Sequence record: PX670417.1
DNA length: 64,000 nucleotides
From: a phage
Direction: 5' to 3' (one strand)
Shown here: positions 49,186-50,771 of the stretch, in pieces
Numbering within the stretch: position 1 is the first letter of the stretch
How the letters are laid out: every line of letters begins with the position of its first letter
Position numbers and translations under genes: made by a program
The notes under the pieces: model-generated
Databases searched by the model: none
What the model saw: the letters and a program-made list of their open reading frames with translations, nothing else
What the model was told of the DNA's origin: nothing

Positions 49186-49264
49186 TGGTACTCCATATCG
49201 GATTCGAACCGATACATAACACAGATTTTAAGTCCGGCCTCTCTGCCAATTGGAGTAATGGAGC
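49186..49264 (-). tRNA. tRNA-Leu (TAA), atypical short variable arm
   Basis: T-arm ATCGG-TTCGAAT-CCGAT, anticodon loop CTTAAAA; D-loop AATTGGCAGAG shared with two other Leu-anticodon tRNAs. Confidence 0.45.
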
Positions 49265-49266
49265 AT

Positions 49267-49342
49267 TGGCGGGGGATGTTGGAATTGAACCAACTTCTTC
49301 GATTTCAAAGACCGAGGTTTTAACCTTGTAAACTAATCCCCT
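49267..49342 (-). tRNA. tRNA-Gln (TTG)
   Basis: T-arm GTTGG-TTCAATT-CCAAC, anticodon loop CTTTGAA, CCA. Confidence 0.6.
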
Positions 49343-49350
49343 TTAAATCT

Positions 49351-49908
49351 TTACTTTCTTAGTGGATGAATAAAGAATGCCAACATAACTCTTTCCCTTG
49401 AGAATGCTCTTTCTTTTGGGACAACACTTTTAAGTTTCCACCCAACATAAATTCTCCAGTAGAATTGTTTACCAAAGACTCTAATTGATGGGATAAAAGC
49501 GAATAATCCCCAAGCATTACTGTTCCACATTAGGAGATAACCTGTCTGATTATCTTCAGGGTTAGAACTTACATTGATATTACCTTTCCACTTAGTAACA
49601 TCTTTTACATCTCTTCCTAACACATGGTAAGAGAAGTTATAAGCTTTGTTTCTCCAGAGCCAACCGACTCTCTGCATATAGACACCAAGCTTACCAATCT
49701 TTCTAATCTTAGCCCATCGTTCGACATGACCTTTATCACCATCAATTGGGTTGTCGTATGTCTCCATCCATCTGAATCCGAAAGGTAAGTGGCCTTTCTT
49801 CTCACTGTAAAATGGAACTACGAAAGGTGCTAAGATAACTGCTAAGGTTGCTGCTAATGGTTCTAACAAAGCTAAGAAAATCCATGAAGCATACTTCAAA
49901 TATCTCAT
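49351..49908 (-). CDS. membrane protein embedded in tRNA array
   Basis: 185 aa; AAGAGG RBS; N-terminal hydrophobic helix IFLALLEPLAATLAVILAPFVVPF. Confidence 0.5.
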   Translation of the reverse strand: MRYLKYASWIFLALLEPLAATLAVILAPFVVPFYSEKKGHLPFGFRWMETYDNPIDGDKGHVERWAKIRKIGKLGVYMQRVGWLWRNKAYNFSYHVLGRDVKDVTKWKGNINVSSNPEDNQTGYLLMWNSNAWGLFAFIPSIRVFGKQFYWRIYVGWKLKSVVPKERAFSRERVMLAFFIHPLRK

Positions 49909-49927
49909 CTAAATAGCCTCTTTAAAT

Positions 49928-50002
49928 TGGTGCAGGATAAGGGATTCGAACCCCTATTAACAGCTCGTAGGCTGTTGCTCTATCCATTTGAACTAATCCT
50001 GC
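49928..50002 (-). tRNA. tRNA-Arg (ACG)
   Basis: Acceptor GCAGGAT/ATCCTGC, anticodon loop CTACGAG, CCA. Confidence 0.65.
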
Positions 50003-50116
50003 TTACCTACAAGAACACCATACAGTTTTTCACAATCTTTGTTTTTACGTCTGTTTAGGTATGACGCTCTAAACTTTTTTGCTATTGACTTATTACTCAT
50101 AGTGTTCTCCTAAAAT

Positions 50117-50194
50117 TGGTGTTCCAAGACGGATTCGAACCGTCACTAATACAAGGTTTGAGCTTGCATCCTCTGCCAATTGGGATACTGGAAC
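50117..50194 (-). tRNA. tRNA-Leu (CAA), atypical short variable arm
   Basis: T-arm GACGG-TTCGAAT-CCGTC, anticodon stem GCAAG/CTTGT, loop CTCAAAC. Confidence 0.45.
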
Positions 50195-50195
50195 A

Positions 50196-50270
50196 TGGTA
50201 CTCACTAAAGGACTTGAACCTTTTTCTTCATCTTGTAAGGGTGGTGTTTTACCATATAAACTAAGCGAGT
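50196..50270 (-). tRNA. tRNA-Val (TAC)
   Basis: Acceptor and T-arm good; anticodon loop CTTACAA with one mismatch in anticodon stem. Confidence 0.5.
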
Positions 50271-50275
50271 ATGAA

Positions 50276-50361
50276 AGAGGTCTGAAGTTGTGCCGCTAAC
50301 TCAACTCCGTGGAATTTGTTACGGTCTTCAGTTGACACCAGCGGTCTTTCACTTGACCTCT
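50276..50361 (-). ncRNA. unassigned structured element inside tRNA array (non-canonical tRNA-like or small RNA)
   Basis: 7-bp closing inverted repeat AGAGGTC/GACCTCT, internal complementary segments (CTGAAG/CTTCAG, CCGCT/AGCGG, CCGT-N10-ACGG) but no canonical T-loop. Confidence 0.3.
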
Positions 50362-50365
50362 GAAT

Positions 50366-50441
50366 TGGTGCTCCCACAAGGATTCGAACCCTGATAAGTT
50401 GCTTACAAGGCAACCGTAATAGCCAATTATACGATAGGAGC
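50366..50441 (-). tRNA. tRNA-Thr (TGT)
   Basis: T-arm CAGGG-TTCGAAT-CCTTG, anticodon loop CTTGTAA, CCA. Confidence 0.65.
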
Positions 50442-50448
50442 ATTAATT

Positions 50449-50523
50449 TGGAGCATCCAGAGGGAATCGAACCCTCAACCTCAGTTTGGAAGACTGTAAT
50501 TTTCCCGTTTAAACTATGGATGC
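50449..50523 (-). tRNA. tRNA-Gly (TCC)
   Basis: T-arm GAGGG-TTCGATT-CCCTC, anticodon loop CTTCCAA, CCA. Confidence 0.6.
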
Positions 50524-50529
50524 ACTAAT

Positions 50530-50605
50530 TGGTGGAGAAGCAGGGAATTGAACCCTGTGCTTAAGTTTGCAAAACTTATGTTTTAACCATGTAAACTACA
50601 TCCCC
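50530..50605 (-). tRNA. tRNA-Ala (TGC)
   Basis: D-stem GTTT/AAAC, anticodon stem TAAGT/ACTTA, loop TTTGCAA, CCA. Confidence 0.6.
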
Positions 50606-50611
50606 AATGTT

Positions 50612-50687
50612 TGGTACAGGTGGAGGGAATTGAACCCATCGTCTTACTGATTAAGAGTCAGCCGCATAACCATTTTGCTACACCTGC
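50612..50687 (-). tRNA. tRNA-Lys (CTT)
   Basis: Anticodon stem GCTGA/TCAGT, loop CTCTTAA; paralog of tRNA-Lys(TTT) at 51927. Confidence 0.55.
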
Positions 50688-50694
50688 ATTAATT

Positions 50695-50771
50695 TGGTAC
50701 ACCTAGAGAGATTCGAACTCACACTGAGCAGATTCTAAGTCTGCTGCCTCTACCAATTGGGCTATAGGTGC
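50695..50771 (-). tRNA. tRNA-Leu (TAG), atypical short variable arm
   Basis: Anticodon stem GCAGA/TCTGC, loop CTTAGAA; D-loop AATTGGTAGAG. Confidence 0.45.

Follow-up and report, generated by a model that had tools for sequence, protein, structure and literature searches.

Three tRNA-Leu genes with type I architecture in the tRNA array of a Felixounavirus phage

A phage DNA stretch of 64,000 nucleotides (nt) from sequence record PX670417.1, referred to here as the window, was analysed for three transfer RNA (tRNA) genes with leucine anticodons (UAA, CAA and UAG). The window is Felixounavirus DNA and the three genes lie in a tRNA array (Table 1). ARAGORN predicted 25 tRNA genes in the whole 64-kb window, all on the minus strand. 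The Rfam tRNA model RF00005 confirmed 23 of the 25 and added one tRNA missed by ARAGORN. The tRNA-Tyr and tRNA-Met genes were ARAGORN calls without an Rfam match. The three leucine genes were found by both tools and all scored above the RF00005 gathering score of 29 bits. Neither tool found a type II tRNA-Leu in the window. The three were confirmed as genuine tRNA genes with a type I leucine architecture, that is, with a short variable loop.

The ARAGORN cloverleaves of all three genes had an acceptor stem of 7 bp and anticodon and T stems of 5 bp each. The D arm consisted in each case of a 3-bp stem closing an 11-nt loop, CAAUUGGCAGA or CAAUUGGUAGA (CAAUUGGYAGA in RNA letters). The variable region was 7 nt in tRNA-Leu(UAA), 6 nt in tRNA-Leu(CAA) and 5 nt in tRNA-Leu(UAG), where it formed the canonical loop UCAGU. 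A type II tRNA has a stem-loop variable arm of at least 10 nt, and none of the three reached this length. A9, C13 and A73 were common to all three, G1·U72 was present in the UAA and UAG genes, and the UAG gene had A37. The 3:70 pairs were U-A, U-A and A-U, with no G3:U70, and the T loop was UUCGAAU. Single-sequence minimum-free-energy folding gave z-scores of -0.5 to -1.8, which are uninformative as usual for tRNAs. The original prediction, which was made from the letters of the window, had placed three candidates of 77-79 nt with short variable regions and a shared enlarged D loop at these coordinates, and had listed no other leucine anticodon in the array. All of this was reproduced, the last point across the whole 64-kb window. 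ARAGORN and Rfam agreed on cloverleaf tRNAs, and ARAGORN assigned the leucine anticodons. The D-loop strings given in that prediction were correct as a minus-strand reading, but the location of the genes on the minus strand had been left unstated.

Table 1. Features of the tRNA array and its surroundings in the window
Feature	Position	Strand	Description
tRNA-Leu(UAA), type I-like	49186-49264	minus	79 nt including encoded CCA; ARAGORN and Rfam (43.1 bits)
tRNA-Leu(CAA), type I-like	50117-50194	minus	78 nt including encoded CCA; ARAGORN and Rfam (44.0 bits)
tRNA-Leu(UAG), type I	50695-50771	minus	77 nt including encoded CCA; ARAGORN and Rfam (58.9 bits)
tRNA gene array	47991-53552	minus	26 tRNAs, all on one strand, with small open reading frames (ORFs) in between; ARAGORN and Rfam
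tRNA-Ser(GCU)	48071-48163	minus	93 nt, long variable arm kept; ARAGORN
tRNA-Ser(UGA)	51027-51116	minus	90 nt, long variable arm kept; ARAGORN and Rfam
tRNA-Tyr(GUA)	52545-52632	minus	88 nt, long variable arm kept; ARAGORN
tRNA-Met	52858-52934		ARAGORN
tRNA-Arg(ACG)-like gene	49928-50002	minus	Rfam (54.6 bits); tRNA-??? with 2-base anticodon in ARAGORN
tRNA-Glu(UUC)-like gene	53029-53100	minus	Rfam only (55.4 bits)
DUF7217 ORF	48165-48962	minus	265 aa, conserved, inside the array
DUF7338 ORF	49351-49908	minus	185 aa, conserved, inside the array
DUF2828/DUF7788 ORF	53718-55133	minus	471 aa, directly upstream of the array
Promoter-like sites	53699-53671, 53608-53579, 51753-51725	minus	Consensus matches only
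Terminator-like site	47828-47811		Consensus match only

At 90-99% identity, the region matched 314 phage records, almost all of them Felixounavirus and relatives, with Escherichia, Salmonella, Shigella and Citrobacter as hosts. Identity to Felix O1 was 94%, and Felix O1, HK3 and Sf14 (Mooglevirus) share the order of its tRNA genes. The same three tRNA-Leu genes are annotated in the Felix O1 RefSeq record with lengths of 78-79 nt. The Felix O1 genome paper lists three tRNA-Leu with Cove scores of 46-58 and leaves the variable arm unmentioned (PMC3185647). Alignment with related phages showed that tRNA-Leu(CAA) is identical to the genes of Felix O1 and Sf14 (78/78). tRNA-Leu(UAA) differs from Felix O1 and HK3 by one mismatch each and matches Sf14 at 77/79 positions, and tRNA-Leu(UAG) matches Sf14 at 75/77. 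Felix O1 carries a divergent allele of tRNA-Leu(UAG) at the same position, with 32/77 mismatches, which is likewise a short type I gene. Hundreds of genomes of Felixounavirus and Mooglevirus have retained the three genes. Their annotation as tRNA-Leu in Felix O1 and in numerous related phages means that the genes as such are already known, and it is their architecture that has gone undiscussed.

Mosaic replacement of single tRNA genes was seen within an array that is otherwise 94-97% identical to those of Felix O1 and HK3. Relative to Felix O1 the mismatches were concentrated in tRNA-Leu(UAG) (32/77), tRNA-Ala (19), tRNA-Thr (16) and tRNA-Asp (10). Relative to HK3 they were found in tRNA-Ile (27) and tRNA-Thr (15). 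Mismatches in most neighbouring tRNAs numbered 0-2. HNH endonuclease genes break up the array in Felix O1 but not in the window.

The original prediction had taken bacterial tRNA-Leu to be normally type II. This is true of the host, where the five distinct isoacceptor genes of E. coli K-12 are 85-87 nt long, carry a stem-loop arm of 13-15 nt and include no type I tRNA-Leu. The three phage genes were aligned with E. coli K-12 leuZ, leuX, leuW, leuV and leuU and with the tRNA-Leu of phage T5. A D arm of the leucine type (N13-A14-A15-Y-Y-G18-G19-Y-A-G-A, then a 3-bp stem) was common to the phage genes, E. coli and T5, as were U8, U48, the T loop and A73. The phage D loop CAAUUGGYAGA corresponded to GAAUUGGUAGA in E. 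coli. The E. coli genes leuZ, leuX, leuW, leuQPV and leuU resemble the phage genes in the D-arm sequence AAUYGGUAGA, in U8, A14, A15, G18G19 and U48, and in the T loop and A73. Two of them, leuZ and leuU, also have G1·U72, as do two of the three phage genes, and the same three anticodons are present in the E. coli host. The main difference was a gap of 8-10 nt in the phage genes at the variable arm of E. coli and T5. In addition, E. coli tRNA-Leu has G9 and G or A at position 13 where the phage genes have A9 and C13, and positions 32, 37 and 38 of the anticodon loop differ between phage and E. coli tRNA-Leu (PMC12482277).

The elements used by E. coli leucyl-tRNA synthetase (LeuRS) are A73, A14, A15-U48, the G18/G19-U55/C56 contacts and U54-A58, and the enzyme is independent of the anticodon and of the sequence or fold of the long arm (PMC9976931; introduction of PMC6614811). 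E. coli tRNA-Leu variants without the long arm remain active substrates (PMC9976931). In the three phage genes the discriminator before the CCA was A73, which was invariant in both this alignment and the viral one described below. U8:A14 and the A15:U48 Levitt pair were present in all three. G18G19 lay in the enlarged D loop and the elbow pairs G18:U55, G19:C56 and U54:A58 could form. Every E. coli LeuRS element that is possible without a long arm was thus found in the three genes.

Overall sequence identity discriminates tRNA isotypes poorly, and the spacing of the D arm was used instead. In 1148 tRNAs from viral contigs, the D-arm motif with 11-nt spacing to the anticodon was associated with a leucine anticodon in 91/102 cases, whereas the same motif with the ordinary 10-nt spacing was associated with one in 0/37. 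The enlarged D arm is diagnostic of tRNA-Leu. The near-identical genes of Sf14 have published tRNAscan-SE 2.0 isotype scores, which also placed leucine first for the UAG, CAA and UAA genes (67.4, 49.1 and 60.2, respectively), and the calls were described by the authors as consistent (PMC12482277). The D arm, the LeuRS elements and these scores all support the suggestion in the original prediction that the genes are class-I-like leucine tRNAs.

Viral contigs were scanned with a pattern that allowed either arm length. At least 120 loci were recovered and, as they were selected by motif, proportions are rough. All counts of viral and bacterial loci below are among the matches listed. ARAGORN identified 161 tRNA-Leu genes in the viral loci, of which 83 were short, 77 long and one intermediate (79 nt). 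In the 160 short and long genes the variable region was bimodal in length, with 83 genes at 4-7 nt (mode 5), 77 at 10-20 nt (mode 13) and none at 8-9 nt. The three genes of the window fall in the 4-7 nt mode. Short tRNA-Leu occurred in 48 loci, long in 48 and both in 10. The tRNA-Ser genes of the same loci were 2 short and 71 long, and the tRNA-Tyr genes comprised 3 of at most 78 nt, 2 of 79 nt and 25 long. Arm loss is specific to leucine among the type II tRNAs, as expected if LeuRS alone can manage without the arm.

For conservation and covariation, 67 distinct short tRNA-Leu sequences from viral contigs were aligned. U8, A14, A15, G18, A35, U48, G53-C56, A58 and A73 were invariant. The type I cloverleaf was paired in 96.6% of cells, and 19/20 pairs had changed on both sides (506 cells). 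The covariation score was 1.00 compared to 0.25 in shuffles (0/500 reached it) and 0.12-0.17 with slid partners. The viral type I core had C13 in 55/77 and A9 in 51/77 genes, compared to G13 in 64/72 and G9 in 53/72 of the type II genes, where A9 never occurred. U48 was present in 63/63 of the 5-nt variable loops, the commonest of which were ACAGU and UCAGU. Type I tRNA-Leu is a family with its own signature (A9, C13, U48 and A73), and the window genes are ordinary members of it and not private deletions. The short form had been called unusual in the original prediction. The short arm was confirmed but its supposed rarity was not, as phages often have this form and it is found in numerous bacterial genomes as well. 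As to whether the arm was lost once or repeatedly, nearest-neighbour comparison outside the variable region gave a median best identity of 0.75 with short genes and 0.70 with long ones, and 14/78 short viral genes were nearest to a long one, in sequences that are short and highly conserved.

In cultured phages, blastn with tRNA-Leu(UAG) hit annotated tRNA-Leu genes in uninterrupted alignments without gaps. The hosts of the matched phages were diverse and included Mycobacterium (91 records), Streptomyces (54 records), Enterococcus, Lactobacillus, Klebsiella, Cronobacter, Enterobacter, Pseudomonas, Acinetobacter, Synechococcus and Gordonia, and a crAss-like phage was also matched. The relatives in Mycobacterium phages were close, at about 83% identity over 68 nt. 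A blastn search of 5,426 complete E. coli genomes with the same gene found no match, and hence no host or prophage copy; this does not inform on origin. Species-representative bacterial genomes were then scanned for the short spacing only, which again gave at least 120 motif-selected loci and rough proportions. Of the pattern-bearing tRNAs 107/117 were tRNA-Leu, in 104 loci. These 107 genes had a 5-nt variable region in 100 cases, C13 in 105, A9 in 84, U48 in 106 and A73 in 105. Many of the loci were from Actinomycetota and others from Bacteroidota, Planctomycetota and further phyla. The type I gene was the sole tRNA within 8 kb in 34/104 loci and lay in a dense array of at least 10 tRNAs in 27/104. 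The dense bacterial arrays reached up to 34 tRNAs per 8 kb. Lone chromosomal type I tRNA-Leu(UAA) genes were observed in Mycolicibacterium, Nocardia and Corynebacterium. The bacterial loci suggest that the type I tRNA-Leu of Streptomyces is not an isolated case.

Other features of the array and its surroundings were noted. Two conserved ORFs encoding DUF7217 and DUF7338 proteins lie inside it, and the 471-aa ORF directly upstream matched Pfam DUF2828 (E = 3e-29) and DUF7788 (E = 1e-43). In HK3 and Sf14 the latter is labelled 'RNA-binding protein'. Its place beside the array is conserved, and a connection with tRNA biology is possible. Three promoter-like sites and one terminator-like site were noted. 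Promoter-like sites were no commoner than chance (14 compared to a shuffle mean of 19.5) and provide no evidence for transcription of the array. The tRNA-Arg(ACG)-like gene is a homologue of that of Felix O1 but has a 6-nt anticodon loop (acagC-CUACGA-Gcugu) where Felix O1, HK3 and Sf14 have acagU-CUACGAA-gcugu, and its discriminator is A instead of G. The 6-nt loop could be a real deletion or a sequencing error. The tRNA-Glu(UUC)-like gene has the anticodon loop CCUUCAA and so carries C33 at a position where U33 is universal. Felix O1, HK3 and Sf14 have another allele of tRNA-Glu, with which only 22/72 nt align.

The three genes are probably working leucine adaptors charged by the LeuRS of the host, as judged from their sequence features. 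They would be transcribed together with the rest of the minus-strand array and matured by host enzymes, the CCA being already encoded, and host LeuRS would then charge them. The UAA tRNA is predicted to decode UUA and UUG, the CAA tRNA UUG, and the UAG tRNA CUA and CUG; CUU could be added if U34 carries the same modification as in the host tRNA. In this way the phage tRNAs would top up decoders that an AT-rich phage needs more than its host. The phage GC content is 39.2%. In the 41 long ORFs of the window the leucine codons were UUA (26.5%), UUG (14.3%), CUU (29.4%), CUA (10.6%), CUG (14.2%) and CUC (5.0%), while in E. coli CUG makes up about half of leucine codons. UUA and CUA were significantly enriched relative to the host in Sf14 (PMC12482277), and the tRNA for Leu(UUA) was among those considered likely to aid translation by the Felix O1 authors (PMC3185647).

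The restriction of arm loss to tRNA-Leu would follow from the synthetases. Bacterial tyrosyl-tRNA synthetase depends on the long variable arm. Seryl-tRNA synthetase (SerRS) does so too (PMC9976931), and because both enzymes need their arms only tRNA-Leu could lose it.

Comparable type I tRNA-Leu genes are known from a few systems. The phrase 'type I tRNALeu' was found in one paper only in the searchable literature, on tRNA-Leu(CAA) of S. coelicolor (PMC6614811), and nothing on phage type I tRNA-Leu was found in the literature searched, subscription literature being outside its coverage. The S. coelicolor tRNA resembles the phage genes in having a 5-nt variable loop, and it exists beside type II tRNA-Leu and a single LeuRS (PMC6614811). 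Its loop, ACAGC, resembles the two commonest viral loops. Short-variable-loop tRNA-Leu(TAG) was noted in passing in Mycobacterium tRNA array units, which form a horizontally acquired cluster, but these belong to another host phylum and were not tied to phages or to LeuRS recognition (PMC6582537). Animal mitochondrial tRNA-Leu is also type I: it has no long arm, and its recognition depends on A73 and A14 (PMC9976931). Unlike the phage genes it is organellar and structurally degenerate, is served by a dedicated mitochondrial LeuRS and shows no sequence kinship. The tRNA-Leu(UAG) of T5 is similarly phage-encoded in the tRNA array of a virulent coliphage but is 85 nt long and type II. The tRNA-Leu of T4, another virulent coliphage with a tRNA array, is type II as well.

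Several points weigh against the view that these are working tRNAs charged by the host. E. coli LeuRS failed to charge the type I tRNA-Leu(CAA) of S. coelicolor and is described as charging type II only, and the Streptomyces enzyme was said to be alone among prokaryotic LeuRS in charging both types (PMC6614811). Within the genes themselves, tRNA-Leu(UAA) has a C27·U43 mismatch and tRNA-Leu(UAG) has A37, in contrast to G37 of the host tRNA. Charging of the phage tRNAs may also be less efficient. Lastly, tRNA positions were no better conserved within the genus than their flanks (94.6% compared to 94.7% identity to Felix O1), although the swapping of entire tRNA alleles makes this figure unusable for testing selection. 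The S. coelicolor result probably does not carry over to the phage genes. That tRNA has C48 where the phage genes have U48, and its LeuRS uses C74 and not A73 and needs a special leucine-specific domain (PMC6614811). A73 and A15:U48 are retained in the phage genes, which have to suit an enterobacterial LeuRS. The failure of E. coli LeuRS may therefore not extend to them, given C48 and the unused A73 in S. coelicolor.

A different explanation accepts the same translational role but sees the short arm as an adaptation. Host defence nucleases or toxins that read the long arm would miss an armless tRNA-Leu, and the phage would keep decoding leucine while host tRNA-Leu was under attack. This is thought unlikely, although it has some points in its favour. 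The tRNA-Tyr of T5 is resistant because its variable loop differs (PMC13096335), which makes escape of tRNA-Leu from arm-directed nucleases conceivable. About half of the sampled phage tRNA-Leu, among the matches listed, are type I while the host has none, and the anticodon-loop differences from the host at positions 32, 37 and 38 form a pattern that has been tied to nuclease evasion (PMC12482277). However, no defence system or nuclease aimed at the variable arm of tRNA-Leu is described in the literature surveyed, and bacterial Schlafen shows no preference for type II tRNAs and so lends no support. The 34/104 bacterial loci without another tRNA within 8 kb also count against it, since single chromosomal type I genes in many bacteria fit poorly with a purely anti-defence origin. 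T5 manages with a type II tRNA-Leu, and so does T4.

It was also considered whether the anticodons mislead, as the original prediction had allowed. The genes would then have another identity with acquired leucine anticodons and would be charged by a different synthetase, leading to recoding or mistranslation. Their length and variable loop are like those of ordinary type I tRNAs, and in Sf14 the Ile2 model came close to Leu for the UAG gene (65.7 against 67.4), while Lys reached 54.2 against 60.2 for Leu in the UAA gene (PMC12482277). Leucine is still the top isotype for all three Sf14 genes, and the 3-bp stem and 11-nt loop go with leucine anticodons as described above. A73, A15:U48 and G18G19 are all in place. 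There is no G3:U70 for alanyl-tRNA synthetase and no long arm for SerRS, and the anticodons UAA, CAA and UAG would be unacceptable to the anticodon-reading synthetases. A different identity is accordingly very improbable. Equally remote is the explanation that the three tRNA-like genes are in decay or have no part in translation (as pseudogenes, decoys or processing signals): although the UAA and CAA genes have some of the lowest Rfam scores of the array (43-44 bits), the minimum-free-energy fold of tRNA-Leu(UAA) is not a cloverleaf and at least two odd genes (the Arg(ACG)-like gene with its 6-nt loop and the Glu-like gene with C33) lie in the same array, covariation keeps every helix across the family, the conserved tertiary nucleotides and the CCA are all intact, the genes are near-identical across two genera, and the three anticodons are complementary and fit the leucine codon bias of the phage.

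A more far-reaching proposal is that type I tRNA-Leu forms one horizontally mobile family, borne by phages in hosts of many phyla, favoured by them because it lacks the arm that defences would read, and efficiently charged by enterobacterial LeuRS. This is doubtful. If true, it would overturn both the published restriction of E. coli LeuRS to type II tRNA-Leu and the textbook rule that tRNA-Leu is long-armed everywhere but in animal mitochondria.

Type I tRNA-Leu had previously been characterised in animal mitochondria and in S. coelicolor. Here a classic lineage of Salmonella and E. coli phages was found to rely wholly on three type I tRNA-Leu genes, which goes against a textbook generalisation, and the share of short genes among the viral matches listed suggests that the architecture is far commoner in phages than the literature implies. 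For annotation, a short tRNA-Leu in a phage is to be regarded as normal and not as an error. The question is also raised of whether loss of the arm shields phage tRNAs from host nucleases. If the host LeuRS charges the three tRNAs, the rules of LeuRS recognition would be confirmed in a natural setting and the supposed type II restriction of E. coli LeuRS would need revising. The genes would then also offer a compact natural scaffold for engineered leucine-inserting or suppressor tRNAs.

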